From positions 7,796 through 71,795 of the forward strand of contig DOEC01000035.1 of NCBI GenBank assembly GCA_003524085.1: a stretch of DNA of 64,000 nt, in the 5' to 3' direction. Both the position numbers and the translations under genes were made by a program. Source of the DNA: Bacillota bacterium (GTDB lineage: Bacteria > Bacillota_I > Bacilli_A > RF39 > UBA660). Positions 9,407-58,399 of this stretch are shown here, piece by piece. Within the stretch, counting starts at the first letter, position 1; every line of letters starts with the position of its first letter. The notes under the pieces are model-generated. The model did not search any database, was not told the origin of the DNA, and worked only from the letters and a program-made list of their open reading frames with translations.

Positions 9407-9414
9407 ACTAATAT

Positions 9415-9620
9415 AAGTTTTGTTGACAAAAGAGTAGTAATTAACATTTCTTTTATAGAGAGTTAGTGTTAGGTGCAAACTAACAAAGAAAGTTAATGAA
9501 CTTGCTTTTAGAAAAACTTCGCTAGTAAGCGTTATAACTATAAAGATGCATAATACTTTATGAATTAAGGTGGTACCGCTGTAGTTTGCAGTCCTTAAGT
9601 CATAAAGTTTATTTTTTTGA
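9415..9620 (+). promoter_or_regulatory. T-box riboswitch leader (Leu-tRNA sensing) upstream of leuS operon
   Basis: Stem I AGAGA element near 9466; conserved T-box sequence AATTAAGGTGGTACCGC at ~9563-9580; T-run terminator 9607-9617; CUU/CUC codons in the specifier region. Confidence 0.6.
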
Positions 9621-9630
9621 AAGGAGTACT

Positions 9631-9999
9631 ATGAAAGAAAAAATAATAATTAACACGATATACTTTTTAGCCTCATACCTGATTATATTCTTAGTCTATG
9701 TTTTCATTGTCAATAGAAAAAAGAAAACATACGCTGATGCTAAAAAAATGACAGACGTAACATACCTGACTACAAAGTTTAAAATAGATAAAAGAAAAAC
9801 AGACTATAATACCCTGAAGTGGTACATAAACTTTATAAACCCACTCATAATATCAACAACATTTGTAGTAATATCAAATATAAAATCATTCACTATGAGC
9901 TTACTTGTAGGTTTCATAGTAATGTTAGTATTAATTTATTCATTATATGAAATAATAGGAAGAATATTAAAAAAGAAGGAGTTTGATAAAAATGTATAA
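9631..9999 (+). CDS. small membrane protein (3 TM) between T-box leader and leuS
   Basis: RBS GAAAGGAG before ATG 9631 (M16 of ORF 9586); overlaps leuS start. Confidence 0.5.
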   Translation: MKEKIIINTIYFLASYLIIFLVYVFIVNRKKKTYADAKKMTDVTYLTTKFKIDKRKTDYNTLKWYINFINPLIISTTFVVISNIKSFTMSLLVGFIVMLVLIYSLYEIIGRILKKKEFDKNV

Positions 10000-33820: not shown

Positions 33821-33895
33821 TGGAGCAAGCGATGGGAATCGAACCCACGTCTCAGCCTTGGCAAGGCCGCGTACTAGCCGTTGTACTACGCCTGC
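33821..33895 (-). tRNA. tRNA-Gly (anticodon GCC), CCA encoded
   Basis: minus-strand GCAGGCG-TA-GTAC..GTAC-G-CGGCC-TTGCCAA-GGCTG-AGAC-GTGGG-TTCGATT-CCCAT-CGCTTGC-T-CCA folds as cloverleaf; anticodon loop TTGCCAA. Confidence 0.9.
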
Positions 33896-35037: not shown

Positions 35038-35124
35038 TAAAGTAGCCTTTTTATAGGTTGCTTTTTTCTTTATCTTTGTATATAATATTTACAGAAGATA
35101 TGAAACGAAAGGAGTATTTTATTC

Positions 35125-35270
35125 ATATTTAGCGCCAGAACCATAAGTGGTTGACGAGGTTAACAGTTATCGATTTTTCGGCGGATGCTGTTACGGATAA
35201 GTAGTTCGTTAGAAGTATTACAAAAAGTAAAATCAATATTACAACAAAATATACTTCATGCTAAATTTTT
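35125..35270 (+). ncRNA. glmS ribozyme (GlcN6P-sensing self-cleaving riboswitch)
   Basis: core AGCGCCAGAAC...GGTTGACGAGG...CGGCGGATG immediately upstream of glmS. Confidence 0.75.
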
Positions 35271-39220: not shown

Positions 39221-40792
39221 ATGAATAATCAAAAAGAATTGGAAAGAAATGAGTTACATAAAACAATATGGAAGATGGCAGATGACTTACGTGGTTCTGT
39301 AGATGGATGGGATTTTAAACAATATGTTTTAGGTTTATTATTCTATAGATTTATATCCGAAAATTTAACTAGTTATTTAAATGAAGAAGAAAGAAAAGCA
39401 GGTAACCCTGATTTTGACTATACAAAACTAAGTGATGAAGAAGCTGAATATGGTAGAGAAGATACTCTAGCAGATAAAGGTTTTTATATATTACCTAGTG
39501 AATTATTCTGTAACTTAAGGAAAAGAGCAAGTGAAGATAAAGACTTAAATATTACATTAGGTAAAATACTTGATAACATAGAAAACTCGGCAAAAGGTAC
39601 GGCTTCTGAAGATGACATGAAAGGTTTATTTGATGACTTAGATTTTAATAGTAATAAACTTGGTAACATTGTTGATGATAGAAACACTAAAATTATTAAA
39701 ATGTTAAATGCAATAGGAGATTTAAAACTAGGAGACTATAAAGATAACACAATAGATACATTTGGAGATGCTTACGAATTTTTAATGACTATGTATGCTT
39801 CAAATGCTGGTAAATCAGGTGGAGAATTCTTTACTCCTCAAGAAGTAGGAGAATTACTTGCCAAAATAACTGTCATGGGTAAAACTGAAATAAATAAAGT
39901 ATATGATCCAGCATGTGGTTCAGGTTCACTACTACTTAAATTTGCTAAAGTACTTGGTAAAGACAATATAAAACAAGGTTTCTTTGGACAAGAAATAAAT
40001 ATAACAACATATAACCTTTGTAGAATAAATATGTTTTTACATGATATAAACTATAATAAATTTAGTATAGAACTAGGAGATACTTTACTTCATCCAGCAC
40101 ATGAAGAAGAGGAACCGTTTGACGCGATAGTATCAAATCCACCATATTCAATTAAATGGGCTGGTAAATCAAACCCACTTCTTATAAATGACCATAGATT
40201 TGCACCAGCAGGAATACTTGCGCCAGAGTCTAAAGCAGACCTTGCATTTACTATGCATATGCTATCTTATTTAAGTTCTAAAGGAACAGCAGCAATAGTT
40301 GAATTTCCAGGAGTACTTTATAGAGGTGGAGCAGAAGAAAAAATAAGAAAATACTTAGTTGATAACAACTTTATAGATACAGTCATACAACTACCTAGCG
40401 ACTTATTTTTTGGTACTTCAATAGCAACTTGCATAATAGTACTTAAAAAGAATAAACAAGATAATAACATTTTATTTATAGATGCTTCTAATGAATTTGT
40501 AAGAGGAAGTAATAAGAATAAACTATCCGATGAAAACATAGAAAACATACTAACACTTATTAAAAATAGAACTAATGAAGAAAATAAATCAGTACTAGTA
40601 ACATATGAAGAAATAAGTAACAATAGTTATAACTTGTCAGTTAACTCATATTTAAAAGTTACCTCTGATGAAGAAGAAATAGATATAGTAGAGTTAAATA
40701 AAAAGATAAAAGAAATAGTAGAAAAACAAGATAAAGTTAGGAAAGAATTAGACCAAATTATAGAAGAATTGGAGTCTGATAGTAATGAGTAA
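39221..40792 (+). CDS. hsdM: type I restriction-modification system, N6-adenine DNA methyltransferase subunit
   Basis: HsdM N-terminal domain (LRGSVDGWDFKQYVLGLLFYRFISE), SAM motif DPACGSGS, catalytic NPPY (SNPPYS). Confidence 0.9.
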   Translation: MNNQKELERNELHKTIWKMADDLRGSVDGWDFKQYVLGLLFYRFISENLTSYLNEEERKAGNPDFDYTKLSDEEAEYGREDTLADKGFYILPSELFCNLRKRASEDKDLNITLGKILDNIENSAKGTASEDDMKGLFDDLDFNSNKLGNIVDDRNTKIIKMLNAIGDLKLGDYKDNTIDTFGDAYEFLMTMYASNAGKSGGEFFTPQEVGELLAKITVMGKTEINKVYDPACGSGSLLLKFAKVLGKDNIKQGFFGQEINITTYNLCRINMFLHDINYNKFSIELGDTLLHPAHEEEEPFDAIVSNPPYSIKWAGKSNPLLINDHRFAPAGILAPESKADLAFTMHMLSYLSSKGTAAIVEFPGVLYRGGAEEKIRKYLVDNNFIDTVIQLPSDLFFGTSIATCIIVLKKNKQDNNILFIDASNEFVRGSNKNKLSDENIENILTLIKNRTNEENKSVLVTYEEISNNSYNLSVNSYLKVTSDEEEIDIVELNKKIKEIVEKQDKVRKELDQIIEELESDSNE

Positions 40793-42029
40793 GATAGAAG
40801 AGTTGATAAAAAAGTTATGTCCTAATGGAGTAGAGTATAAAGATTTAAATAGTGTTTTTAAACTTTTTTCTGGAATGAGAGACGTTTCAAATAAATGGAA
40901 AGAAACAGGAAATTGTCAATTTATAGATTATATGAATGCCTATAAAAACCAAAAAATTGATGTAACTAAATTACCTTATGCAACTGTAAAATCGTTAAAT
41001 CAAAACATATTAAAAAGAGGAGATTTGTTATTGACAAGTGCTTCTGAAGTAAGGGAAGAATGTGCAATATGTTCTGTAATAGAAAATGATATTGAAGACA
41101 ACATATTTATGGATGATCATTTATTCGGTTTAAGATTAAAAGATATGTATATAGACAAAATCAATACAACTTTTATAAGCTATTACTTGAATTCTGAACC
41201 ATTCAGATGTAATTTAAAGAAAGCAATACGAGGGGTTACTAGATTTTACATATCAAATGATAATTACTTAAAATTAAAAGTTCCAGTACCACCATTAGAA
41301 GTACAAGAAGAAATAGTAAGAATACTAGATAAGTTTGGAGAGTTGGAGACAGAGTTAGAGGCAGAGTTAGAGGCAAGGAAGAGTCAGTATGAGTTTTGGC
41401 GTGGCAAATTATTAAATAACAATGCGAGTAAAATAGTAAAGCTTGGAGAAGTTTGCCTTGTTAGTTCAGGTGGTACACCTTCTAAAAAAAAGACAGAGTA
41501 TTGGGAAAATGGAGATATAAAATGGCTTGGATCTTCAGTATGTTGTAACAAAAAAACAGTAGAAGAGGTAACAGATAAAATTACAGAGGTAGGATTAAAA
41601 AATTCATCAGCAAAAATTTTAACTCCTAAAACTACCCTTATAGCGATGGTTGGCGCAACAATAGGAAAAGTTGCTTTTCTTGAATTTGAAGCATGTACAA
41701 ACCAAAATGTTGCCAGCTTAATTCCAAAAGATACATCATTTCTTAATTCGGACTATTTATTTTATGCATGTAGAAACCTATATTCACAATTTGTTGAATA
41801 TTCAAAAGGAAAATTTTCAATTGCTAGTCTTGGATATATTAAAAATTTAGAAATAAAAGTACCTTCATTACAAGAACAAGAAAGAATAGTTAACATACTT
41901 GATAAATTTGATAAACTAGTTAATGATATTTCAGAAGGTTTACCTGCTGAAATAGAAGCAAGAAGAAAACAATACGAGTATTATAGAAATAAACTTTTAA
42001 GTTTTGAGGAGTTGGTTGTTAATGAGTAA
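40785..42029 (+). CDS. hsdS: type I R-M specificity subunit
   Basis: two TRDs separated by conserved central helix LEVQEEIVRILDKF..ELEAELEARKSQYEFWRGKLL and C-terminal repeat of same. Confidence 0.9.
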   Translation: MSKIEELIKKLCPNGVEYKDLNSVFKLFSGMRDVSNKWKETGNCQFIDYMNAYKNQKIDVTKLPYATVKSLNQNILKRGDLLLTSASEVREECAICSVIENDIEDNIFMDDHLFGLRLKDMYIDKINTTFISYYLNSEPFRCNLKKAIRGVTRFYISNDNYLKLKVPVPPLEVQEEIVRILDKFGELETELEAELEARKSQYEFWRGKLLNNNASKIVKLGEVCLVSSGGTPSKKKTEYWENGDIKWLGSSVCCNKKTVEEVTDKITEVGLKNSSAKILTPKTTLIAMVGATIGKVAFLEFEACTNQNVASLIPKDTSFLNSDYLFYACRNLYSQFVEYSKGKFSIASLGYIKNLEIKVPSLQEQERIVNILDKFDKLVNDISEGLPAEIEARRKQYEYYRNKLLSFEELVVNE

Positions 42030-43164
42030 ATTCAACTCAGTTGAAGAAGTAAAGAATGAATTAATAAGAATACTTAACAAGGTTGTTAAAGATAAGAAAA
42101 GTGGAAAAGAAAAAATTAATGTTGTGTTACTTTATGCCTTTAATGGAACAGGCAAAACTAGAATTTCCGAATTAATAACTGAAGAGGAAGAAAATAAGTG
42201 TTTATTTTATAACGCATATGTTGAAGACTACTTTACTTGGAATAATAGAGAAAAAGAATTTCTAATTGATATGAATGCTGATTTATTTAGAATAATAAGA
42301 ACTCAAGAATTAGAAAATGATATTATAGATAATTTTAAAAGCTTAGTTGAAACTAAACTAGAGCCTGTATTTGATATACCAGACGCAAAAATCACATTTC
42401 AACTAGCAACAGGAGACTCTAATTCTACACAAAATGTAAAGATATCTAAAGGCGAAGAAAGTATGTTTATATGGTCTGTATTTTACTCAATATTAAACTT
42501 ATCTTTAGAAATGTTAGATGAAGAGTTGGAAAATAGAAGTTGCGAAGATTTTAATTTACTAAGATATATAATTGTTGATGACCCAGTATCTTCAATAGAT
42601 GATACTAAAATCATTGCAATTGTTGATCAATTTACAGAATACTTAAATAGATTAAAAAATGTTGATATTAAAAATGATAATAAGTTAAGTATTTTAATTA
42701 CCACACATCATCCATTATTTTTTAATATAATGCAAAATTACTTTAAAAATAAATCAAATGATAAGTTTAATGCAGAATATTATGTACTAATGAGAGGTGA
42801 AAATAATACTTTAGAACTTAATGAACAAAGAGGGGACTCCCCATTCGCTTATCATTTATCACTTATAGAAGAACTTGTTACAGTAGTCAATGAAGATAAT
42901 ATAAAGAAGTATCATTATAATATTTTAAGAAGTTTATTTGAAAAGACTTCAAACTACTTAGGTTATACCAACTGGGCTGACTGTATTAGTGATGAAGAAG
43001 ATAAGAGTTTAATTATTAAAGAGGTTAATCAAAATAGTCATAATAGATTATCTGACATTGAATATTGTGAGTTATCAGAAGAAGATAAAGAGTTATTTAA
43101 GAGAGTGTTTAAAAGATTTTTAGAGGATTTTAACTGGAAGTCAAAAGAAAAAGTTAAGGAGTAA
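42022..43164 (+). CDS. prrC: PrrC-like anticodon nuclease (ABC-type ATPase head + C-terminal ACNase motif) embedded in the type I R-M operon
   Basis: Walker A AFNGTGKT; ABC signature ISKGEESMF; Walker B/D-loop IIVDDPVSSIDD; H-loop ITTHH; C-terminal R-x3-E...(33 aa)...H (LRSLFE ... QNSHN) matching PrrC R320/E324/H356 spacing; position between hsdS and hsdR. Confidence 0.65.
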   Translation: MSKFNSVEEVKNELIRILNKVVKDKKSGKEKINVVLLYAFNGTGKTRISELITEEEENKCLFYNAYVEDYFTWNNREKEFLIDMNADLFRIIRTQELENDIIDNFKSLVETKLEPVFDIPDAKITFQLATGDSNSTQNVKISKGEESMFIWSVFYSILNLSLEMLDEELENRSCEDFNLLRYIIVDDPVSSIDDTKIIAIVDQFTEYLNRLKNVDIKNDNKLSILITTHHPLFFNIMQNYFKNKSNDKFNAEYYVLMRGENNTLELNEQRGDSPFAYHLSLIEELVTVVNEDNIKKYHYNILRSLFEKTSNYLGYTNWADCISDEEDKSLIIKEVNQNSHNRLSDIEYCELSEEDKELFKRVFKRFLEDFNWKSKEKVKE

Positions 43165-43170
43165 TGTGTA

Positions 43171-43803
43171 ATGAAAAAAAGTAAAATAATGATATTTTGT
43201 TTGTTAGTTTTTTCTATAATTTGTTTAATAATCTATGTAATATTAGCGTTATGTGTTTCTTGTCCAATTGTTGAAACTATAGTTCTAGGCCTTTTAACTA
43301 GTGCAGTAGTTACACTTTTTGTATCTGTTTTAGACTATTGTTGTTTCAGAGATGAAGAGATACAAAAGTTTAAATTAGAAATAAGTAAATACTTTTGTTA
43401 TTTGATGGACTTTAAAAAAGACATTAATGATATATTAGTTATGTTTGATAAAAGACAACATATTAAAGTCGAAGATTATGTAAAAAGTAACATTAACACT
43501 TTAAAATATTTGTGTGTAGGTAAACCACAATTCTTATCTTTTGATTTTATACTCAAAGATAAGAACTTTACAAAGACAACTAATTACTTATATGATTTAA
43601 CATTTGGAACTAAACTAATTGAAATTTATAATAAGAAAAAAATTATAACATTAGAAGGGTATAAAAGTTATCTAAACGATTTATTAAAAGAAATTAATAA
43701 AGAAGTAGATACAATTAATAATGAGATGAAGAATATTAAGAAGTTTAAGATCGCTAAGGAATGGGAAAAATTTACTGAAAGAGAAAATGTATTTGGGAGT
43801 TGA
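43171..43803 (+). CDS. 2-TM membrane protein of unknown function between prrC-like gene and hsdR
   Basis: MKKSKIMIFCLLVFSIICLIIYVILAL and second helix; no recognizable domain. Confidence 0.55.
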   Translation: MKKSKIMIFCLLVFSIICLIIYVILALCVSCPIVETIVLGLLTSAVVTLFVSVLDYCCFRDEEIQKFKLEISKYFCYLMDFKKDINDILVMFDKRQHIKVEDYVKSNINTLKYLCVGKPQFLSFDFILKDKNFTKTTNYLYDLTFGTKLIEIYNKKKIITLEGYKSYLNDLLKEINKEVDTINNEMKNIKKFKIAKEWEKFTERENVFGS

Positions 43804-43809
43804 TAATTA

Positions 43810-46800
43810 ATGGTTAATATAATAAGTGAAAGTGATAACTATACAGTAGTTACTGAGTATAAAGGTTTAGAAAAGAAAAGTGGTACTTATCAAAGTGAAG
43901 ATGCTTTAGAAAAAGAATTAATTAAAACATTAATGGAACAAGGTTATGAGTATTTAACTTTTAATAGTGAAAGTGAATTAATTAGTAATTTAAGAGATAA
44001 ACTTGGTAAACTTAATAATCATGTGTTTAGCGATAATGAGTGGAATAATTTATTTAATAATGTAATAGCTAATAAGAATAATCATATACTTGAGAAAACT
44101 AAGATAATTCAAGAAGATTATAAACAGCCTTTAAGACTTGATAATGGAGAGTTAATTAATGTTTATTTAATAGATAAAGATAATATACATAATAATTGTC
44201 TACAAGTAATTAATCAGTATGAAAATAATGATGGTAATCATGAAAATAGGTATGATGTAACTATACTAGTAAATGGTTTACCTTTAGTACATATTGAACT
44301 TAAAAGAAGAGGAATAGACTTAAGAGAAGCATTTAATCAAATAGATAGATATCAAAGAGACTCATTCTGGGCTGGAAGTGGTTTATATGAATATATTCAA
44401 ATATTTATTATAAGTAATGGAACATATACTAAGTATTATTCTAATACTACAAGAGATTTACACTTGAAAACAGGTACTAAGAAAACTTCTAATACATTTG
44501 AATTTACTTCTTATTGGTCAGACCAAAATAATAATTCAATTATTGATTTAATAGATTTTGCTAAAACTTTCTTAGCAAAACATACTATCTTAAATGTACT
44601 TTGTAAGTACTGTGTATTTTCAACTGATGGCACTCTTTTAGTTATGAGACCTTATCAAATAGTTGCTACTGAAAAGATTATTAATAAAATAGAAATATCT
44701 CATAATTATAAATTATATGGAAGTATTAAATCAGGTGGATATATTTGGCATACTACAGGTAGTGGTAAAACACTTACAAGTTTTAAAACAAGTCAACTTG
44801 CTAGTAAGTTAAGTTTTATTGATAAAGTTGTATTTGTTGTTGATAGAAAAGACTTAGACTATCAAACAATGAAAGAGTATGATAAATTTAAAGAAGGATG
44901 CGCTAATAGTAACTCTAATACTAAAATACTAGAGTCTCAACTAGCTGATAATGATTCTAAAATAATAATAACTACTATACAAAAATTAACTAATTATATA
45001 AAGAAATTTCCTAAACATAATGCATTTGATAAACAAGTAGTATTTATATTTGATGAATGTCATAGAAGTCAATTTGGAGATATGCACAAAGCTATTATAT
45101 CTAAGTTTAAGTATTACTATATATTTGGTTTTACTGGTACTCCTATATTTAAAGAAAACGCTATAACTAGAAAAAGTATAGTCTTAACAACTGAGCAAGT
45201 ATTTGGAGAAAAACTACATACTTATACTATTGTAAATGCTATAAATGATAAAAATGTATTACCTTTTAGATATGAGTTTGTAGAAAATATTGGTAGAAAA
45301 AGTGATATAGAAGATGAAATGGGTTTTAAAATTGATAAAAATAGAGTATTTAATAACCCAGTTAGAATAGAACAAATAACTAAGTATATTATCAATAACT
45401 TTGCTAGAAAAACTAAAAATAATGAAACTTATTTATTTAGTACTTTAGATAATGTTAAAGAAGTTGCTAAAGATAATAACGCTGTTGAAGTTAAGAAAAA
45501 GTATTATGTAAATGGATTTAATTCAATATTTGCTACTTCTTCAATTGAAGCTGCTAAAAAGTACTATGAATGTTTTAAAAATATACCTAACAATTTGAAA
45601 GTCGCTTTAATATATAGTTATGGTGTTAATGATGAAGTTATCACTTGCTTTGATGATGAAAACTCTGAGTCTGCGGAAAATCTAAGTAAAAGTGATAGAG
45701 ATTATTTAGACTATGCCATTAAAGACTATAATAAAATGTTTGGAACTACTTATGATACATCTAATGAAAAATTTCAAAACTATTATAAAGATGTTTCTCT
45801 TAGAATGAAGAATAGAGAAATAGACATTTTAATTGTTGCTAATATGTTTTTAACTGGTTTTGACGCTAAGACATTAAATACTTTATGGGTTGATAAAAAT
45901 CTTAATTATCACGGACTTATTCAAGCATTCTCTAGAACTAATAGAATACTTAATTCTGTTAAAACATTTGGTAATATAGTATGTTTTAGAGATTTGGAAA
46001 AGGAACTTAATGATGCATTAGGTTTATTTGGAGATGCTGAAGCGTCTAGCATCGTTTTGTTAAAACCGTATGAAGACTATTTAAATGGCTATGATGATGG
46101 TAAACATAGTTTTGTAGGTTATATAACTTTAGTTAATGAACTTAAAAGTAAGTTTAATCCAGGTGAACTAATAGTTGGAGAGAGTAAACAAATTGAGTTT
46201 ATCAAGTTATTTGGACAAATATTAAAAGCTAGAAATATTCTTTCTACTTTTGATAAGTTTAGTAATGATGATATATTAGACGCTAGAGACGAACAAAATT
46301 ATAGAAGTACATATATTGAACTAAATAGTCAGTATAAACAGAGAATGAAAGCAGATAAACTTGATGTTAGTAATGATATAGTCTTTGAAATGGAATTAGT
46401 TAAACAAATAGAAGTTAATGTTGACTATATTTTAAATTTAATTAAAGAGTATCATGATGGTAATATGGAAAATAAAGAGTTATTGATTACTATTAATAGA
46501 ATGGTTATGTCCAGTCCTGACTTAAGAAATAAGGTTGACTTAATTGATGAGTTTATTAGAAGTTTGAATAAAGATAGTAATGTATATAATGACTTTAATT
46601 CTTTTATGAATAGTAAAAAGAAAGAAGAGTTAGACAAAATAATTTCAGAAGAGAACTTGGATAAAGAGAAAACTTATGTCTTCGTAAAAAGAAGTTTTGA
46701 AAACGGAAGAGTAGAAACTAATGGTACAGAACTATCATCTATATTACCAGCAATGAGTAGGTTTGAAGCAGATAAAAAAAGAACAAAGAAGAAAGAGAGT

Positions 46801-46863
46801 GTTGTTGAGAAGCTAATTGGTTTCTTTGATAAATTCTTTAGTATTAGTAATTCAGAATTTTAG
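43810..46863 (+). CDS. hsdR: type I restriction enzyme R subunit
   Basis: N-terminal nuclease ILVNGLPLVHIELK; SF2 motifs HTTGSGKT, DECHRSQ; 1017 aa. Confidence 0.9.
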   Translation: MVNIISESDNYTVVTEYKGLEKKSGTYQSEDALEKELIKTLMEQGYEYLTFNSESELISNLRDKLGKLNNHVFSDNEWNNLFNNVIANKNNHILEKTKIIQEDYKQPLRLDNGELINVYLIDKDNIHNNCLQVINQYENNDGNHENRYDVTILVNGLPLVHIELKRRGIDLREAFNQIDRYQRDSFWAGSGLYEYIQIFIISNGTYTKYYSNTTRDLHLKTGTKKTSNTFEFTSYWSDQNNNSIIDLIDFAKTFLAKHTILNVLCKYCVFSTDGTLLVMRPYQIVATEKIINKIEISHNYKLYGSIKSGGYIWHTTGSGKTLTSFKTSQLASKLSFIDKVVFVVDRKDLDYQTMKEYDKFKEGCANSNSNTKILESQLADNDSKIIITTIQKLTNYIKKFPKHNAFDKQVVFIFDECHRSQFGDMHKAIISKFKYYYIFGFTGTPIFKENAITRKSIVLTTEQVFGEKLHTYTIVNAINDKNVLPFRYEFVENIGRKSDIEDEMGFKIDKNRVFNNPVRIEQITKYIINNFARKTKNNETYLFSTLDNVKEVAKDNNAVEVKKKYYVNGFNSIFATSSIEAAKKYYECFKNIPNNLKVALIYSYGVNDEVITCFDDENSESAENLSKSDRDYLDYAIKDYNKMFGTTYDTSNEKFQNYYKDVSLRMKNREIDILIVANMFLTGFDAKTLNTLWVDKNLNYHGLIQAFSRTNRILNSVKTFGNIVCFRDLEKELNDALGLFGDAEASSIVLLKPYEDYLNGYDDGKHSFVGYITLVNELKSKFNPGELIVGESKQIEFIKLFGQILKARNILSTFDKFSNDDILDARDEQNYRSTYIELNSQYKQRMKADKLDVSNDIVFEMELVKQIEVNVDYILNLIKEYHDGNMENKELLITINRMVMSSPDLRNKVDLIDEFIRSLNKDSNVYNDFNSFMNSKKKEELDKIISEENLDKEKTYVFVKRSFENGRVETNGTELSSILPAMSRFEADKKRTKKKESVVEKLIGFFDKFFSISNSEF

Positions 46864-47172: not shown

Positions 47173-47811
47173 ATGTCAAAGTATAAGTTATTATTAGATG
47201 AGTCAGGTTCTTTTGAAAATAAAGACGAAAAATATGTAATAATAGGTGGGGTTCTCTTTAAAGAAGAATATCAACCTGAACTTGAAAAGATTTTTGTTCC
47301 ATTGCATACTCACTTACGTAATGTTTTAAAATGCACTGAGTTACATGCTACTAGAAATAAAGAACTTTTTGATTATTTGGCTCCTATTTTGGGAGCTTGT
47401 GAATACATAACTCCTATCGTTTTTGTTATTGACAAAAAGAGTAGCTTTATTTTTGATAATTATGATCATAAAAGTTTTAAATATAATAAAGCAATTCAAC
47501 ATTTAATTAAAAAAATGATTAAGAATGGATTAGTCAATAATGATGATGAACTATATATAAAAATAGATAACATTAATCTAAATAGAGATGAAACTGATAA
47601 TTTAACAAATTGGTTGCCAAAAAATATGAGTATTGTTAAAGAGGTAAAACAAGGTGACTCTAGAGATTATATTGCTTTGCAGCTTGCTGATATAATTGTT
47701 AATAATTTTAGTAAAAAAACAACTTGTAAACTAAATTCAGTAAGAGTAAAAATGTTATCTCCAAAGATTTATTGTTTTTTAAATAAAACTGTAAAAGAGT
47801 ATTTTATATAA
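47173..47811 (+). CDS. DUF3800-family protein
   Basis: N-terminal LLLDESGSF...GGVLF and C-terminal QLADI motifs. Confidence 0.65.
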   Translation: MSKYKLLLDESGSFENKDEKYVIIGGVLFKEEYQPELEKIFVPLHTHLRNVLKCTELHATRNKELFDYLAPILGACEYITPIVFVIDKKSSFIFDNYDHKSFKYNKAIQHLIKKMIKNGLVNNDDELYIKIDNINLNRDETDNLTNWLPKNMSIVKEVKQGDSRDYIALQLADIIVNNFSKKTTCKLNSVRVKMLSPKIYCFLNKTVKEYFI

Positions 47812-47869: not shown

Positions 47870-48592
47870 ATGAGAAATGAAGTGCAAGAAATATATATAA
47901 ATTTAGATGATTCTGGTAAATTAAGTTCTAAAGAAGACATTAGTGTGTATGGCGGTGTCGTATTTTTAAGTAAAAAAGAGAAAGATAAATTTATAACTCA
48001 GTATAAAAAGATTATAAATGAGGTCAAGTGTGAATACTGCAAGATATGTAATCACGCCTGTCCTGAGATTAAAAATACAAATATTAAGCCAGAACATAAG
48101 CGTTGGTTAATGAATTACATTAAAAATTATTTTGTAGTTGGGTTAATAATTGAAAATAAAAAGGTGTATGAAGAAATATTACAAAGTAAGGCATCAAAAG
48201 GAAGATTTACTGATTATGCTATTCGTAGGCTTATTAAAGAAATATTAAAGTCACTAATTAAAGAAGGCAAAATCGATCCATATAAGCCTGTTAAGATTGT
48301 ATTAAATATAGACCAACAAAGTACAAAAAGTAATGGATATTATAATTTACGTGATGGTATATTAGAAGAGCTTAAATATGGAATATCTGCCTACAATTAT
48401 TCTGTTAAGAGAAAGAAAATAGTTTACTCTGATTTAGATATTTTAGTTACTTATCAAGTATCTGCTAAGAGTTATGTTATTCAAGCAGCTGATTTACTAG
48501 CAGGTACAATAAGAAGAACTGTACTTGACAACATTGAAAACTATGGAAGAGCTTTATCAAAATTTGTGGACTTAAAAATAAAACTTCCATAA
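47870..48592 (+). CDS. DUF3800-family protein (paralog of preceding gene)
   Basis: LDDSGKL...GGVVF and IQAADLLAG motifs. Confidence 0.65.
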   Translation: MRNEVQEIYINLDDSGKLSSKEDISVYGGVVFLSKKEKDKFITQYKKIINEVKCEYCKICNHACPEIKNTNIKPEHKRWLMNYIKNYFVVGLIIENKKVYEEILQSKASKGRFTDYAIRRLIKEILKSLIKEGKIDPYKPVKIVLNIDQQSTKSNGYYNLRDGILEELKYGISAYNYSVKRKKIVYSDLDILVTYQVSAKSYVIQAADLLAGTIRRTVLDNIENYGRALSKFVDLKIKLP

Positions 48593-48595
48593 AAG

Positions 48596-48620
48596 AAAAA
48601 AAGCCATTACTGGCTTTTTC
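48596..48620 (+). terminator. rho-independent terminator AAAAAGCCA-TTAC-TGGCTTTTT
   Basis: read directly from the sequence. Confidence 0.6.
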
Positions 48621-48862
48621 CCAATTAGGGCGGCGTACTTAGAATTACGCTTAAATATAAATATTCGCGACCTAACTATCGACCTGACGAGATTTCTCTC
48701 CGGTAATACAATAATACACTATTTTTATTAAAATGTCAAACATAATTTGACATTGTGTCAAGAAAACAGTTACATTTTGTATTATTGTATATAAATATTA
48801 TATGCGTTATATGCCTAATTATACTTTATTAAAAAAGTAAATATATAATGTTTATATCAATA

Positions 48863-53231: not shown

Positions 53232-53414
53232 ACTATTTCCCGTTCTTTTTTTGTATATTAAATTTGTTGCTTGATAAGCCCTCTTTGCAAAATCATCAGT
53301 TAAATAAGGTAAAATACTTTCATTATCACTTGAGTGGTAGATTTTTTCCTGGTTCAAATTTTTTAAGTTTTTCAAAAGCTGATTTCGATAGAGTAGCTGT
53401 ATACATAACATCAT
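53223..53414 (-). CDS. small hypothetical protein (62-63 aa)
   Basis: ORF with GGGGGA SD but very short spacing; divergent from plus-strand promoter. Confidence 0.25.
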   Translation of the reverse strand: MMLCIQLLYRNQLLKNLKNLNQEKIYHSSDNESILPYLTDDFAKRAYQATNLIYKKRTGNSLI

Positions 53415-53487
53415 CCCCCTTAATTACTATAATTATACCATATTTGGTACACAAAGTTAATTTCCACATAAATAAGCAAACATTTTG

Positions 53488-53516
53488 TTGACAAACAAAT
53501 ATACATATTTTATAAT
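53488..53516 (+). promoter_or_regulatory. consensus sigma-A promoter TTGACA-17nt-TATAAT
   Basis: followed by AGGAGG and ATG 53536. Confidence 0.65.
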
Positions 53517-53535
53517 AGTATCAGGAGGCATAAAG

Positions 53536-54111
53536 ATGATAGAAAATTTTATAATTACATATATTACTGATTATAATCCATATTTAATGGAAGAAGCAAC
53601 TGCTGTTTTTAATCAAGATGGCACGTTTAACAGGCTTAGAATAGAAGAGGAGGAATATAGAAGTTTAGAAGTAAAAGAGGCACAGAAAAGAGCAAAAGCG
53701 CATATAAAAGAACAAAAAGGGATATCGTATAAAAATATATTAACTTCTAATACAATATTAATAGACGACAAAACTGCAAATGAGTATATATATTCATGTT
53801 ATACAAGATGGTCAAAAACAGACATGAAATATGTCAAATGTATTCTTGCCAATTATATTAAGGAACTATTTATGAATGCTAATAGCAAAAGTTATGAAGC
53901 AAATAGAAAAAATAAACATAATTTAGACGCAATGTATGGTTTCTATAAATATGGAGCTAAGTTTTCTATTGTTGATAATGGTAAAGAAACAATTTATACT
54001 TGTTCACTTTTAGTAAGAAACGATGCGAATGGTAAAAAATATTTATATGATATTTTAGATATTAAAAAAATTAACCAAGTAAGCTTAGAAAAGTATTTTC
54101 AAACTACTTAG
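53536..54111 (+). CDS. hypothetical protein (192 aa)
   Basis: start MIENFIITYITDY at M18 of ORF 53485, perfect RBS. Confidence 0.6.
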   Translation: MIENFIITYITDYNPYLMEEATAVFNQDGTFNRLRIEEEEYRSLEVKEAQKRAKAHIKEQKGISYKNILTSNTILIDDKTANEYIYSCYTRWSKTDMKYVKCILANYIKELFMNANSKSYEANRKNKHNLDAMYGFYKYGAKFSIVDNGKETIYTCSLLVRNDANGKKYLYDILDIKKINQVSLEKYFQTT

Positions 54112-54140
54112 TTAATTAGAGACTATTATTATGAACAAGA

Positions 54141-54716
54141 ACCTCCATACGAGCCTTCCGTTTAAAATAAACCAGGCATATCTATGCTCCAGCACCTTGC
54201 TCATGAATAAATTATAGCATATCATTTACTAAAAGTAAACACTATATAAAAATTGTTAACATAAACATAATTAAATATGCAATAAAAAAGACGAGTTACC
54301 TCCATACGAGCCTTCTGTTTAAAATAAACTAGGCAAAGCTATGCTCCAGCAACCTGTCATGTATAAATTGTAGCATATCATTTACTAAAAGTAAACAACT
54401 AAAAAGTATCTTTTTAAGCATATAATTGTGAAAGTAAAATAAAAAAAGGAACGAGCTACCTCCATGCGAGCCTTCCGTTTAAAATAAACCAGGCAAATCC
54501 ATGCTCCAGCAACCTGTCCATGTACAAATTATAACATATCATTTACAAAAAGTAAACAAATAAAAAGTATCTTTTAAGTGCTAAAATAGTAGAATAAAAT
54601 AAAAAAGAACGAGTTACCTCCATACGAGCCTTCCGTTTATGATAAACCAGGCATAGCTATGCTCCAGAAACTTGTTCATGAATAAATTATAACATATCAT
54701 TTACTAAAAGTAAACA
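54141..54716 (-). repeat. array of four tandem ~160-bp repeats (conserved ~100-bp cores at 54141-54241, 54298-54397, 54458-54558, 54616-54716), each with a minus-strand TTTACT-17nt-TATAAT promoter and short leaderless ORF
   Basis: direct visual alignment of four copies; periods 157/160/158 bp. Confidence 0.8.
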
Positions 54717-54738
54717 AATAAATTTTTGAAAAATATAC

Positions 54739-54767
54739 TTGACAAGTGTAATAAATACGCATATAAT
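54739..54767 (+). promoter_or_regulatory. sigma-A promoter TTGACA-17nt-TATAAT for Nudix-regulator gene
   Basis: read directly from the sequence. Confidence 0.55.
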
Positions 54768-54790
54768 TATAATGTAGTGAGGTGATGCGT

Positions 54791-55462
54791 ATGCAGTTAA
54801 CAAACCCTTTATATAAAAATATTGGAGTACATGTTATTACTAGTATTTTTACAGTTGACAAAGGTGTAGTTAAAGTACTACTTGTTAAAAGAACTAATGA
54901 ACCATTTAAAGAAAAGTGGAGTTTAGTAGGAGGTGCACTTTACAACAACGAAAGACTAGAAGACGGAGTTAAAAGAGAAATATTTGAAAAAAGTGGCTTA
55001 ACTGATGTAAATGTTTATTTTTCAGGAGTGTTTGATGAAATTGATAGAAGTCCTGTTAGAAGAATGATAGCTTTAACTTATGTTGGACTAATAGACGCAA
55101 ATAAAGTTCAAGTACTAAAGAAAACTCTTAAAACTGATAATTCTGACTGGGTCCCAATTGATAAAGTTCAAAATTTGGCAGGTGACCATAACAAGATTTT
55201 ATTAAAAGGCCTAGATACTTTAAAAGAGCTAATTGTAACAACTGACATATTAAAAAGCTTATTTCCGAGTGGTGTAACCATTCCTGAAATACAAAAGACT
55301 TATGAAAGTATACTAAATAAGTCATTTGATAGACGTAACTTCAGAAAGAAACTTCTTAGTCTAGGTATAATAGAAGACACTAATAAATATATGGTATTTG
55401 AAGGGAAAAAACCTGCTAAGTTATATAGATTTAATAAAAAGAAAAATAAGAATGTATTATAA
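54791..55462 (+). CDS. Nudix hydrolase-domain + C-terminal winged-helix protein (NrtR-like regulator)
   Basis: Nudix box GGALYNNERLEDGVKREIFEKSGL; ~100-aa C-terminal extension typical of NrtR. Confidence 0.65.
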   Translation: MQLTNPLYKNIGVHVITSIFTVDKGVVKVLLVKRTNEPFKEKWSLVGGALYNNERLEDGVKREIFEKSGLTDVNVYFSGVFDEIDRSPVRRMIALTYVGLIDANKVQVLKKTLKTDNSDWVPIDKVQNLAGDHNKILLKGLDTLKELIVTTDILKSLFPSGVTIPEIQKTYESILNKSFDRRNFRKKLLSLGIIEDTNKYMVFEGKKPAKLYRFNKKKNKNVL

Positions 55463-55515: not shown

Positions 55516-56034
55516 ATGAAAGATTTGTATATTGATTTTGATGGAGTAATTAAAGATACTATAAAAGTATCTTACAAAATGATGGAAGATGAAAAAATTG
55601 ATTTAAGAGATCGACCTAAAGTAATTGAATTCTATAAGCAACTTGACTGGGAATACTTACTTAAAATAAGTGCTGAAATAAAAAATGCTTATCACTTTAT
55701 AAATAAAATCTCAGAAGAAGGAACATTTAATCCTAAAATACTTACAACAGTTAATTCTCTTAATGAGATAAAAGCAAAACTAAGTGACATAAAAAAGAAT
55801 TGTAAAAACATCACTCTGGTGTCAGTGCCATCTGGAATTGAAAAGTCAGTCTTAGTAAATCCAAAGAATTCTATTTTAGTAGATGACTACCGTGGCAACT
55901 TAATCTCGTGGCAAAATTCTGGTGGAATTCCAGTGAAATTTGCAAACGAAATAAGTAGTGAATTTATAACAATCAATACATTAGAAGTATTTACAGAAAA
56001 AGAAATATGCAAAAATTTGTGTTTAAGGAGGTAA
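55516..56034 (+). CDS. HAD-superfamily 5'(3')-deoxyribonucleotidase-like protein
   Basis: DLYIDFDGVIKDT (DxDGV motif I) in a 172-aa protein. Confidence 0.6.
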   Translation: MKDLYIDFDGVIKDTIKVSYKMMEDEKIDLRDRPKVIEFYKQLDWEYLLKISAEIKNAYHFINKISEEGTFNPKILTTVNSLNEIKAKLSDIKKNCKNITLVSVPSGIEKSVLVNPKNSILVDDYRGNLISWQNSGGIPVKFANEISSEFITINTLEVFTEKEICKNLCLRR

Positions 56035-56039
56035 TTAAA

Positions 56040-56567
56040 ATGAAAGAAGATACAAGAAACATAGCGTTACAAAAATTAAAAACTCTTAAAAGCGAAAGAG
56101 AAGAACTATTGTCTTTACAAAAAGAACTAAATGATTTAAAAGAAAATGACTTAGTCAAAAGGTACTTGTTTTTAGATAGTTTTCTAAGTAAAACAAACAT
56201 AGAAAGTGATAAAAAGTTAATATTAGATTCCTTTAGTTCTCTAATTAGAAACAACGAATGCACACACGACATATGGGTATATCTAGGTAGCTTTTATTAC
56301 GTAGACGATATGTTTAGGTCATATAGTATAAAAGTCCCAAACGAAAGAGATAAAAAGTTTGAGTATAATCTGTATGGATGTTTGGAATGTGACGAAACAG
56401 TAGAAACTAGTGACTATATAAAATTTGAAAGCGAGCACATATGTTTAAAAACAAGAAAATATGTTAACATCTATGAGCTAAGAAAACAATATTTTGAATA
56501 TTTAACTGAAATGAATGTAGACGAAACAGTCAAGAAATTAACGAGTATGTTTGGAGGTGAATTATGA
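56040..56567 (+). CDS. hypothetical protein (175 aa), operon member
   Basis: AGGAGG RBS; Cys/His cluster CLECDETVETSDYIKFESEHIC. Confidence 0.55.
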   Translation: MKEDTRNIALQKLKTLKSEREELLSLQKELNDLKENDLVKRYLFLDSFLSKTNIESDKKLILDSFSSLIRNNECTHDIWVYLGSFYYVDDMFRSYSIKVPNERDKKFEYNLYGCLECDETVETSDYIKFESEHICLKTRKYVNIYELRKQYFEYLTEMNVDETVKKLTSMFGGEL

Positions 56568-57223
56568 GCTGTTTATATTATTATTCACTTAATGATGGAA
56601 ATGTAGAAAAATACAAAATTAGTATTGACGAAGAAAAACTAAGCAAGATAAAAGAAAAAAGCATTTATAAATGTGGAAAAAAGAAGAAAGTGAGCTATGA
56701 AGGCGTAAGATTTTTTAAAAATAATATGTACTATACTGATTTTAAAGAAGTTGACCTAGGATGGAGAGAATACAAAGATGGTCCAGACGAAAAACTGTAT
56801 AGATATAGTTTCACTGAATACGTTCCAACCTATTTATCACAATTAATAGATATTATCATAAGTTCAAGTAGCGAAAAAGCAATAAGAGAATTATTTCAAA
56901 TGGACCTATCTAAAGAATTTTGTGGCTTTCAAAAAGAAATAAACGATATACTTAATAAAGCTAGCAAGATAAGTGACAGCGACTACAAAAATAAGATAAA
57001 CGCTTTAAACGAATTAAAAAACATTTACGAAGAAAAAGAATTTAATAGTGACAGAGAGGACATAAGCATATACTATAAAGAAGCTTTCACTTGCTTCCAT
57101 GTTGAACTAATAGATAAGATTACATTAGAAGAATATAACAAAGTTATCAATTTTATTAACGGTATACCATTTACAAACGATAAAGTTTGTGATTTAATAT
57201 TAAGAATGAAGGAGATGTTTTAA
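56564..57223 (+). CDS. hypothetical protein (219 aa), operon member
   Basis: ATGA overlap with upstream gene. Confidence 0.55.
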   Translation: MSCLYYYSLNDGNVEKYKISIDEEKLSKIKEKSIYKCGKKKKVSYEGVRFFKNNMYYTDFKEVDLGWREYKDGPDEKLYRYSFTEYVPTYLSQLIDIIISSSSEKAIRELFQMDLSKEFCGFQKEINDILNKASKISDSDYKNKINALNELKNIYEEKEFNSDREDISIYYKEAFTCFHVELIDKITLEEYNKVINFINGIPFTNDKVCDLILRMKEMF

Positions 57224-57823
57224 ATGGATAGTTATATTAGCTTTAGATATTTAAACAAAAAATTATTAGACCAATATAAAGGTTTGGTGCCAGTTGAAAT
57301 TGAATGTTCTAGAAGACACTATAATGGAGTAGACTATGATACTTACTCATATTCAACAATTGTATATTATAAGAAAGAAAATTTTAATCCTAAAAACTAT
57401 AAAAATGTTAAAACTTTTGGTAATGAGTTAACAGTTATAGACTTTGAATACGATTTTGAAGATTATATGAACTTTATTAAAGACTGTGAATTCAAATTAA
57501 GAGACGAAATAGTAGATAAACCATTGGGTATTTACTTATTTCAAGTAAACCATCACGTAGTAAAAGACGGAAAATGCTTACTTGTTAATACCAAAGATAA
57601 CAAATATGATTTAGATAATTTTGTTATGAGTGTAGTAGAAGAACTAAACTTATTAAGTGAGTCTTCTAGAAAAAAGATTATATCACAGTATGAACTAATA
57701 AGGTATAAACTATTTAAGAGTGAAGAATTAAGTAGAAAAGAATATGATTTATTAAGTAGTTTATTAGATAAAGACATAGACGAAAAATTAGAAGAACTAA
57801 CTGTATTAAAGCTTAGCTTATAA
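57224..57823 (+). CDS. hypothetical protein (199 aa), operon member
   Basis: TAAATG junction with upstream gene. Confidence 0.55.
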   Translation: MDSYISFRYLNKKLLDQYKGLVPVEIECSRRHYNGVDYDTYSYSTIVYYKKENFNPKNYKNVKTFGNELTVIDFEYDFEDYMNFIKDCEFKLRDEIVDKPLGIYLFQVNHHVVKDGKCLLVNTKDNKYDLDNFVMSVVEELNLLSESSRKKIISQYELIRYKLFKSEELSRKEYDLLSSLLDKDIDEKLEELTVLKLSL

Positions 57824-57841: not shown

Positions 57842-58399
57842 ATGATATATTTAATGAGACATGGGCATGAAGATGAAGGATTTATCGGTGGTTGGAGTGA
57901 TACACATTTAACTCAGAAAGGTGTAAACGAAAGTGTAAACGCTGGGAACTTTATTGTTAATAAAGGGTTAGTTATTAACAAAATATTGTCAAGCAATATA
58001 ACAAGAGCAAAAGAAACAGCAAGGATTATTAATTCAAAATTAAATGTGCCTTTGGAAATAACAAAACTTTTAAATGAACAAGATAAAGGCATTATTAATG
58101 GTATTCCTTTACAAATGGCTGAAGAGTACTATAGTGAATTTATTAATACAGAAGATATTTACAAAAGGTTTCCAGAAGGAGAAAGTTTAAGCGATTTTTA
58201 TAATAGAATACTTTACTATTATCATGATATTTTAAAAGAAGACAATACATTATTAGTAACTCATAGTGGTGTCATTAATATGATTTACTATATTCTTACT
58301 AATACAAAGTTAGGCTATAATAAGAAAGGATTTAATGTAACTCACTCTAGTATTCATGAATATGATCCAACATTAAAGAAAATAAAAAGAATATATTAG
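57842..58399 (+). CDS. histidine phosphatase (phosphoglycerate mutase family)
   Basis: LMRHGHEDEG (RHG motif); AAAGGAGG RBS. Confidence 0.75.
   Translation: MIYLMRHGHEDEGFIGGWSDTHLTQKGVNESVNAGNFIVNKGLVINKILSSNITRAKETARIINSKLNVPLEITKLLNEQDKGIINGIPLQMAEEYYSEFINTEDIYKRFPEGESLSDFYNRILYYYHDILKEDNTLLVTHSGVINMIYYILTNTKLGYNKKGFNVTHSSIHEYDPTLKKIKRIY

Follow-up and report, generated by a model that had tools for sequence, protein, structure and literature searches.

Type III toxin–antitoxin (TA) systems (ToxIN, CptIN, and TenpIN) are built from ~34–45-nt RNA repeats that precede the toxin gene on its own strand, share one promoter, and are cut into units by the toxin. In tandem type I loci of E. coli, namely the Sib/Ibs "QUAD" repeats and the Ldr/Rdl "LDR" repeats, each repeat combines a toxin open reading frame (ORF) and an antisense RNA. 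In Listeria, the small RNA (sRNA) genes lhrC1–4 are arranged in tandem. Here, we analyze a tandem array in a 64-kb stretch of DNA from a Bacillota bacterium (the whole stretch is called the window, and its numbering is used throughout). The array's four minus-strand units appear to be genes for a structured small RNA, and they face the 3' end of a gene encoding an LPD3 domain. Type I TA systems of Firmicute prophages, exemplified by txpA/RatA, bsrG/SR4, and yonT/SR6, likewise possess convergent, 3'-overlapping antisense RNAs (PMC8464778, PMC5848175), and Listeria LhrC1–5 are multicopy, or sibling, sRNAs (PMC5880928). LPD3 is among about 40 domains associated with large polyvalent proteins, the functions of which were left open by a 2017 survey (Iyer et al. 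2017, PMC5512222). Our literature search found no paper tying polyvalent proteins or LPD3 to an antisense RNA. An antisense sRNA linked to a mobile-element gene and tandem sibling sRNA genes are each known in kind. New are the RNA family, the constancy of its location at the edge of LPD3, even within giant ORFs, the large LPD3 partner, and the amplification of the RNA gene alone.

The array spans 54112–54740 and consists of four head-to-tail units of ~158 bp each. A preliminary description, made from the letters of this DNA, had reported four tandem ~160-bp repeats with periods of 157, 160, and 158 bp. Tandem Repeats Finder (54141–54722, period 158, 3.7 copies, 84% matches, score 782) and a repeat search (four copies, spacings 157/160/158) bear this out. 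The window contains the 18-nt core GAAGGCTCGTATGGAGGT four times, always on the minus strand, against a shuffle expectation of 0.00. A promoter scan finds four minus-strand promoters, one per unit, as had been proposed. The sequence that had been assigned to every copy, TTTACT-17-TATAAT, is right for units 1, 3, and 4 (10/12) but not for unit 2, which reads TTTACT-17-TACAAT (9/12). All four promoters carry a TG extended -10 element, and a palindrome, TTTAC-N5-GTAAA, covers every -35 box. The sequence also agrees with the description in that an ATG lies 6 nt past each -10 box, in that the in-frame copies encode MNKFLEHSYAWFIINGRLVWR, MDRLLEHGFAWFILNGRLAWR, and MSKVLEHRYAWFILNGRLVWRFLFIIIVSN, each closed by a stop codon, and in that copy 2 is frameshifted, reading MTGCWSIALPSLF before its stop. 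U-runs had escaped mention: one follows straight after the long closing stem in units 2–4, while unit 1 has the hairpin without a U-run. On this anatomy, each unit is a separate gene comprising a predicted promoter and a ~75–80-nt structured small RNA, with a predicted terminator in units 2–4. The module contains the following features:

53488–53516, plus strand: promoter of the LPD3-like gene, TTGACA-17-TATAAT, 12/12, also found in loci L029 and L066
53536–54111, plus strand: solo LPD3-domain gene, 191 aa from the ATG that follows GGAGG; weak match to Pfam LPD3 (E = 6.9e-7)
54131–54204, minus strand: predicted sRNA gene, unit 1 (type D), adjoining the LPD3-like gene; same hairpin, no U-run
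54211–54239, minus strand: unit 1 promoter, TTTACT-17-TGcTATAAT, from the promoter scan
54284–54360, minus strand: predicted sRNA gene, unit 2 (type C); 1-nt deletion near the 5' end, U-run at the end
54367–54395, minus strand: unit 2 promoter, TTTACT-17-TGcTACAAT, 9/12, with TG extension
54441–54521, minus strand: predicted sRNA gene, unit 3 (type B); P2 is CAUG/CAUG, U-run at the end
54528–54556, minus strand: unit 3 promoter, TTTACT-17-TGtTATAAT, from the promoter scan
54601–54679, minus strand: predicted sRNA gene, unit 4 (type A), closest to nrtR; predicted start at the A of AUG, rod-like hairpin, U-run, covariance model score 97–98 bits
54686–54714, minus strand: unit 4 promoter, TTTACT-17-TGtTATAAT, 10/12, with TG extension

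From its predicted start, the minus-strand RNA folds as one long, imperfect, rod-like hairpin of ~75 nt. Outward to inward, it consists of the outer stem P1, a purine-rich internal loop (GGAG opposite GA), P2 (CAUA/UAUG), a 5-nt/3-nt loop, P3 (GCCU/AGGC), a 1-nt/3-nt loop (G opposite GGA), and the apical stem P4 (GUUUA/UAAAC). Among the window copies, P1 varies in sequence with its pairing kept, and P2 undergoes a compensatory change to CAUG/CAUG in unit 3. The 1-nt deletion in unit 2 disrupts the putative ORF and leaves the hairpin intact. In 44 distinct sequences from subfamilies 1 and 2 of the relatives described below (the window units belong to subfamily 1), 90% of pair cells are standard versus 35–50% with slid partners, nine pairs have changes on both sides, and none of 500 shuffles reaches the observed covariation score. 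Two G·U pairs are near-invariant (U16·G65 in 44/44 sequences and G14·U67 in 39/44). Because they would become A·C mismatches on the plus strand, the minus strand is the RNA strand. We conclude from the compensatory changes and the invariant G·U pairs that a conserved structured RNA is specified by the minus strand. Across the subfamilies, P2 appears as CAUA/UAUG, CAUG/CAUG, CAC/GUG, CGC/GCG, or CACC/GGUG, and P4 as GUUUA/UAAAC, AUCC/GGAU, GUCCC/GGGAC, or GUC/GAC. The minimum-free-energy topology (P2, 5-nt/2–3-nt loop, P3, 1-nt/3-nt loop, P4) is the same from the window to the rod-shaped phage RNAs discussed below.

This RNA family is undescribed and absent from Rfam. A cmscan search of Rfam 15 over 53400–55400, with expect values (E) up to 10, returned a chance rteR match outside the array as its sole match; no match in the array passes the Rfam gathering thresholds; and eight related loci, including phage ones, gave no match at E up to 1. 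Two other identities were considered and rejected. The strings GCAUAGC and AAGGCU suggested a trans-activating CRISPR RNA (tracrRNA), a CRISPR (clustered regularly interspaced short palindromic repeats) repeat, or an RNA anti-CRISPR. However, Tandem Repeats Finder reveals no spacers in the array, the large ORFs of the window include no cas genes, and no tracrRNA or CRISPR direct-repeat model matches, in line with the preliminary judgment that the array is not CRISPR-like. A known insertion sequence (IS) or miniature inverted-repeat transposable element (MITE), raised earlier as a possible source of the repeats, or a repetitive extragenic palindromic (REP) element, is likewise discarded: the core is confined to one locus in the window, and each of the three species genomes with the core has a single such locus.

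Unit 1 departs from its siblings. The type D copy (54131–54204, and also in L090, L112, L115, L120, and L123) never has a U-run in subfamily 1, and type D copies collect changes that are unseen in other copies, namely AAG in place of the ATG, an A for the G of the first P3 pair, and GAA or GAU where the conserved loop otherwise reads GAG. The type D copy may be decaying, or it may serve a distinct, read-through antisense role.

The partner gene lies on the plus strand, convergent to the RNA units, and has a GGAGG ribosome-binding site. An AlphaFold2 model of its product is alpha/beta (predicted local distance difference test score 86.6) and has no significant match to a known fold and none to ToxN or AbiQ. 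The stop codon is 17 nt downstream of the unit 1 hairpin (the hairpin ends at 54131 and the stop codon at 54111, with 19 nt between). No obvious or canonical plus-strand terminator was seen after the LPD3-like gene and before the array or nrtR. Because the gene also has a 12/12 promoter, its mRNA should carry the complements of the units. Conversely, unit 1 lacks a terminator, and its transcript should therefore extend, as antisense, into the LPD3-like gene. In each of the 29 arrays that have sufficient flanking sequence, the LPD3-like gene is convergent and ends 10–33 nt from the RNA core. In subfamilies 2, 3, and 4, the stop codon lies inside the RNA 3' arm, and the variable C-terminal tails of the corresponding proteins (e.g., ...IKKQELASA) are explained as antisense translation of the RNA terminator. 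Identity between the LPD3-like proteins falls in step with RNA subfamily divergence (87–100%, 63–66%, ~51%, and 38–43%). The linkage to LPD3 is strict and ancient: judged from all the loci compared, the RNA is always encoded where the coding sequence of an LPD3 domain reaches its 3' boundary, on the opposite strand.

Two further observations concern the LPD3-like gene. Within it, 53982–54016 is 80–94% complementary to stretches covering the -35 boxes and spacers of the RNA promoters (54382–54416, 54701–54720, and 54226–54241; inverted repeats I1–I3), which may reflect chance in AT-rich DNA or a trace of the origin of the array. In the related locus L048, the interval from ogg to the LPD3-like gene contains an additional gene encoding 261 aa (1791–2576 of that contig), which marks this flank as an insertion hot spot.

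Relatives of the array fall into four subfamilies. An exact-pattern scan of species genomes identified the array in only three others, with 2, 2, and 5 copies at one locus per genome. The three carriers are syntenic, low-GC gut Bacilli, metagenome-assembled genomes resembling "Clostridium sp. CAG:628". Types A–D are orthologous between carrier genomes; the copies are therefore old paralogues that have not been homogenised. A metagenome scan added ~25 human-gut contigs with 1–4 copies, so that arrays among relatives range from 1 to 5 copies; many of the metagenomic and viral loci are close relatives, and the counts overstate their independence. Subfamily 2, found via NrtR homologues, lies between the same two gene families (period 114, 3–4 copies), and each unit has the promoter TTTACA-17-TGaTATGAT, a 12-bp P1, and a U-run. 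Subfamily 3, found via homologues of the LPD3-like protein, has 4 copies with a period of ~122 and scores 38–56 bits with our covariance model; its neighborhood is ATPase...tsaD, with no nrtR, and the same search also turned up a single-copy locus. Subfamily 4 (one or two copies) occupies an SDR...tuf neighborhood, also without nrtR, and has the same anatomy by eye. A promoter and a terminator for each unit recur in subfamilies 2, 3, and 4. The LPD3-like gene and the array thus travel as a pair in three neighborhoods: ogg...nrtR, ATPase...tsaD, and SDR...tuf.

Covariance models R1 and R2, built from subfamilies 1 and 2, detect subfamily 3 but neither subfamily 4 nor the RNAs from phages. A family-wide model was precluded by the poor quality of MAFFT alignments in P1 and P2 of the distant rods. 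Deep homology of the RNA is based on position, promoter layout, topology, and short motifs (GNCUG-hairpin-GGAAGNC...GG(A/U)GG). The phage rods have an apical motif, P3-N-P4-(G/A)GA-P3', in common with subfamilies 1 and 4. Neither subfamily 4 nor the phage RNAs contain GGAG/GGAGG, and subfamilies 2 and 3 lack the GGA bulge.

The most distant relatives come from IMG/VR contigs, where "viral" may include other mobile elements. There, LPD3 is not a solo gene but a domain inside giant polyvalent ORFs, which run on without a stop for at least 1390–2164 aa beyond the motif KYLYDILDIKK. Directly past the conserved domain end, GKKYLYDIxxIKK, lies an antisense near-consensus promoter, typically TTGACA-17-TATACT. 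Specifically, of 24 loci, 21 have a promoter of at least 10/12 with 17-nt spacing on the antisense strand in the 170 nt that follow the LPD3 motif; the sense strand has none (0 of 24), and elsewhere in these loci such a promoter occurs in 6 of 361 stretches. In all 17 loci that were folded, the promoter is followed by a predicted 61–89-nt structured RNA with paired 5' and 3' ends and then a U-run, which is the antisense of Lys or Lys-Glu-Asn codons. AT-rich phage RNAs are rods, with z-scores of -3.6 to -6.8 in the four tested. In a GC-richer phage group, the RNA is Y-shaped, and compensatory changes affect 13 of its 23 pairs, though the DNA codes for protein on the opposite strand. Semi-conserved linker peptides (LPxVASNS... 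and ...SIR...) are the antisense translation of the RNA and its -10 box. No tandem repeats were found downstream of the viral LPD3 domains; the RNA is single-copy there. Among named phages and plasmids, the search for carriers of this LPD3 clade returned one unannotated faecal phage record and no plasmid. Because the RNA is encoded within the polyvalent ORF, on its antisense strand, it is by construction fully complementary to the polyvalent mRNA.

How does the module compare with the systems described at the outset? As in txpA/RatA-type loci, a strong promoter of its own drives a small, structured antisense RNA (~100 nt) that is convergent to, and 3'-overlapping with, a partner mRNA, with the difference that the transcripts here are predicted; in both cases the two parts are linked to mobile elements and move together. 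The convergent, overlapping arrangement is present in subfamilies 2–4 and in the phage ORFs. In the window, the coding sequence itself is not overlapped, and overlap of the transcripts is only predicted. In txpA/RatA-type systems, moreover, the partner is a hydrophobic membrane peptide of less than ~60 aa, whereas here it is a soluble ~190-aa LPD3 protein (191 aa and alpha/beta in the window) or a domain in a protein of more than 1390 aa. Any toxicity of LPD3 is conjectural, and the RNA gene is tandemly amplified. Like the E. coli QUAD and LDR loci, the array consists of antisense-RNA units duplicated in tandem on a chromosome; unlike them, it repeats the RNA gene alone, with a single protein gene at its end.

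With type III TA systems, the module shares tandem structured-RNA units beside a gene for a ~170–190-aa protein that is found on mobile elements, and the idea that several RNA copies neutralise one protein. Its units differ in being 114–160 bp long, in having their own promoter and U-run, and in converging on the gene. The model of the LPD3-like protein also does not resemble the ToxN/AbiQ endoribonuclease fold. Because the defining features of type I and type III TA systems were both sought and not found, we do not file the module under either class. Like the LhrC RNAs, the array consists of side-by-side homologous sRNA genes, at least two, each with its own predicted promoter and Rho-independent terminator (in the window, unit 1 has no U-run), and its copy number varies between relatives. 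LhrC RNAs act in trans on distant mRNAs through a conserved single-stranded seed, whereas the RNAs here have no family-wide seed and accompany one neighboring gene family. Finally, DUF3800-I (Rfam RF02969) is likewise an orphan structured RNA that recurs beside one biological-conflict gene family; it has no sequence or structural similarity to the array RNA and does not occur in tandem arrays. A DUF3800-I RNA is present in the window (48587–48711, minus strand, 66.6 bits), tail-to-tail and overlapping by a few bases with the second of two plus-strand DUF3800 genes (47173–47811 and 47870–48592). This gene-facing-small-RNA geometry resembles that of the LPD3/sRNA module 5 kb away.

We propose that the RNA is an antisense RNA that controls the LPD3 mRNA, akin to a 3'-overlapping type I TA antitoxin and amplified in tandem. 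Drawn from sequence and analogy, this reading stands, in our view, an even chance of being right. The notion is that the extended -10 promoter would start the transcript at the first base of the long imperfect hairpin, and that, in units 2–4, the closing stem and U-run would end it. The RNA would pair with the 3' part or 3' untranslated region of the LPD3 mRNA, and pairing would lower LPD3 expression by duplex-dependent decay together with interference from convergent transcription. Tandem amplification would raise the RNA dose, and variation between 1 and 5 copies could tune it. Antisense action is proposed because the RNA of mobile elements is complementary throughout to the polyvalent mRNA, because the solo loci (subfamilies 2–4) overlap the LPD3 gene at the 3' ends, and because in the window the LPD3 mRNA should include the complements of the units. 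Moreover, no loop motif is common to all subfamilies, while structure, promoter, and terminator are retained, which is the pattern expected of a cis-antisense RNA changing together with its target. We infer that the window holds a chromosomal, domesticated version in which the RNA gene was duplicated in tandem to four copies.

Several observations weigh against this proposal. In the window, the nearest copy does not overlap the LPD3-like coding sequence, and overlap needs read-through by one or the other transcript. A purely cis mechanism does not need the extra array copies. The window copies are thermodynamically weak (z = -0.75 and -1.2 versus shuffles), and the hairpin core of subfamily 1 is far more conserved than the P1 stem, which a protein-binding surface would fit too. 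Many of the phage loci are closely related among themselves and thus not independent, and the homology of subfamilies 1–3 to subfamily 4 and the phage RNAs does not come from a significant model score.

The principal rival is a partnership between RNA and protein. The hairpin could bind the LPD3 protein, as an RNA antitoxin or inhibitor following type III TA logic or as a ribonucleoprotein cofactor, with the tandem copies providing stoichiometric excess. That the RNA and the LPD3 gene strictly co-occur and diverge together would fit, as would the extra copies, which necessarily act in trans, the nearly invariant internal loops and apical domain of subfamily 1 above a covarying P1, and the apical motif that subfamily 1 shares with subfamily 4 and the phage rods. 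Yet no loop motif is kept across all subfamilies, the Y-shaped phage RNAs differ in architecture, the LPD3 fold matches are not significant, and convergent geometry with a promoter per unit is unlike known type III systems; we therefore regard a protein-binding role as rather unlikely. Titration has also been considered at the level of host regulation. The option of multicopy sRNAs, one of several offered at the outset, is supported by the promoter and conserved hairpin of every unit and by the U-runs of units 2–4. In its ordinary form, it would cast the units as trans-acting siblings in the manner of LhrC1–5, acting on host mRNAs or titrating an RNA-binding protein via the CUGGAG and GGAGG loops, with LPD3 a mere landmark. 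These GGA-containing loops are conserved in subfamilies 1–3 only, and the candidate seed is lost in subfamily 4 and the phage RNAs. A host-regulon sRNA, furthermore, would not show linkage to LPD3 across three genomic contexts and phage ORFs, and duplex folding versus shuffles gives no specific signal for pairing with the translation-initiation regions of the cognate LPD3 genes. This form of the sRNA explanation is improbable. A CsrA-type GGA sponge was rejected on the same distribution of the GGA motifs. A different view dispenses with a functional RNA and sees the units at work as DNA or through transcription itself: by transcriptional interference or as a bidirectional terminator, a stack of convergent promoters and terminator hairpins would block read-through from LPD3 and shield the nrtR operon. 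The strong LPD3 promoter, the lack of a canonical plus-strand terminator before the same-strand nrtR gene, and hairpins placed exactly at the end of the LPD3 gene speak for it. However, the cassette is also found midway through giant ORFs, in which termination would do harm; internal helices P2–P4 covary, which a roadblock would not need; and the subfamily 3 and 4 loci have no same-strand operon downstream to protect. We consider pure insulation quite doubtful.

Two explanations that grew out of the preliminary description fare worse. One is that the units are leaderless mRNAs for peptides of 21–30 aa, a small-protein or type I toxin family: an AUG coincides with the predicted transcription start in all four window units, and three copies yield similar peptides. 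That similarity follows from the invariance of the RNA core. The ORFs are not preserved in copies elsewhere, a test set in advance, being frameshifted, deprived of their start, or missing. Specifically, the type C 1-nt deletion is conserved in L048 and at least seven metagenome contigs, and ATG is changed to AAG in the related contig L120. Codon differences between the in-frame window copies have synonymous:nonsynonymous counts of 1:7, 1:4, and 0:6. Subfamily 3 begins AUG AAU UAG, a two-codon ORF, and in subfamilies 2 and 4 a start codon is lacking or the short ORFs are unrelated. With no conserved ORF in the family, a coding function is scarcely credible. The other explanation concerns the divergent neighbor, correctly recognized as Nudix/NrtR-like: the plus-strand gene at 54782–55462, on the same strand as the LPD3-like gene, encodes a protein with Nudix and NrtR_WHD domains. 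The RNAs could belong to an NrtR regulon responding to nicotinamide adenine dinucleotide or ADP-ribose and be repressed via the TTTAC-N5-GTAAA palindrome, which is present in 4/4 units beside this divergent gene. The published NrtR box is a ~21-bp palindrome with a GT-N7-AC core (PMC2330246), which the unit palindrome lacks. The palindrome is also missing from subfamily 2 promoters beside the same nrtR. Furthermore, the seven neighborhoods of NrtR homologues that we examined lack the RNA, NrtR homologues of other lineages (64–71% identity) are not accompanied by an array, and the arrays of subfamilies 3 and 4 have no nrtR. Membership in an NrtR regulon is thus very improbable, and the link that had been implied is positional only: by this comparison, the Nudix/NrtR neighbor is incidental to the RNA array.

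The nrtR gene has features of its own. Its promoter (54739–54767, TTGACA-17-TATAAT, 12/12) has GT-N7-AC in the spacer (GTAATAAATAC, core 54748–54758) and is near-identical in L070. This is a weak candidate for an autoregulatory NrtR box, a motif short enough to arise by chance. Between nrtR and a His_Phos_1 gene (57842–58399) lie four genes without a Pfam family (55516–57823), of which only the first matched, to a PHROG family of 5'-3' deoxyribonucleotidases. More distant relatives have a His_Phos_1 gene and/or an AAA_28 (NadR-kinase-like) gene immediately after nrtR. Elsewhere in the window, a type I restriction-modification locus (39221–46863) contains hsdM, hsdS, an inserted gene for an AAA_13 protein (42004–43164), a gene for a 210-aa protein without a family match, and hsdR. 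Ordinary RNA features are a T-box leader (9414–9599, plus strand) upstream of leuS (9983–12403), a glmS ribozyme (35120–35267, plus strand) upstream of a 581-aa ORF at 35289, and a tRNA-Gly(GCC) gene (33821–33895, minus strand).

For annotation, these results mean that the short ORFs in the units are spurious and that an RNA family missing from Rfam is added. The phage loci would represent a clear case of a functional antisense promoter/hairpin/terminator cassette kept in a protein linker, with RNA-level selection shaping the "linker" peptide (e.g., LPxVASNS, IKK, and SIR). The position of the RNA gene exactly at the 3' edge of LPD3, together with the giant ORFs and the solo copies, offers an experimental handle on LPD3 function, and the 1–5 copies among close relatives would form a natural dosage series. 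We tentatively speculate further, as a possibility well short of probable, that the hairpin RNA is everywhere the dedicated antidote or obligate RNA partner of LPD3, that the two constitute an unrecognised RNA–protein conflict module that also exists in injected polyvalent proteins, and that the chromosomal arrays are host-domesticated immunity. If so, the module would be a TA-like pair composed of a large, non-peptide protein and an antisense or protein-binding RNA, phages and conjugative elements would inject the polyvalent proteins that carry it, and the tandem arrays would provide dose-amplified immunity against LPD3-bearing invaders.

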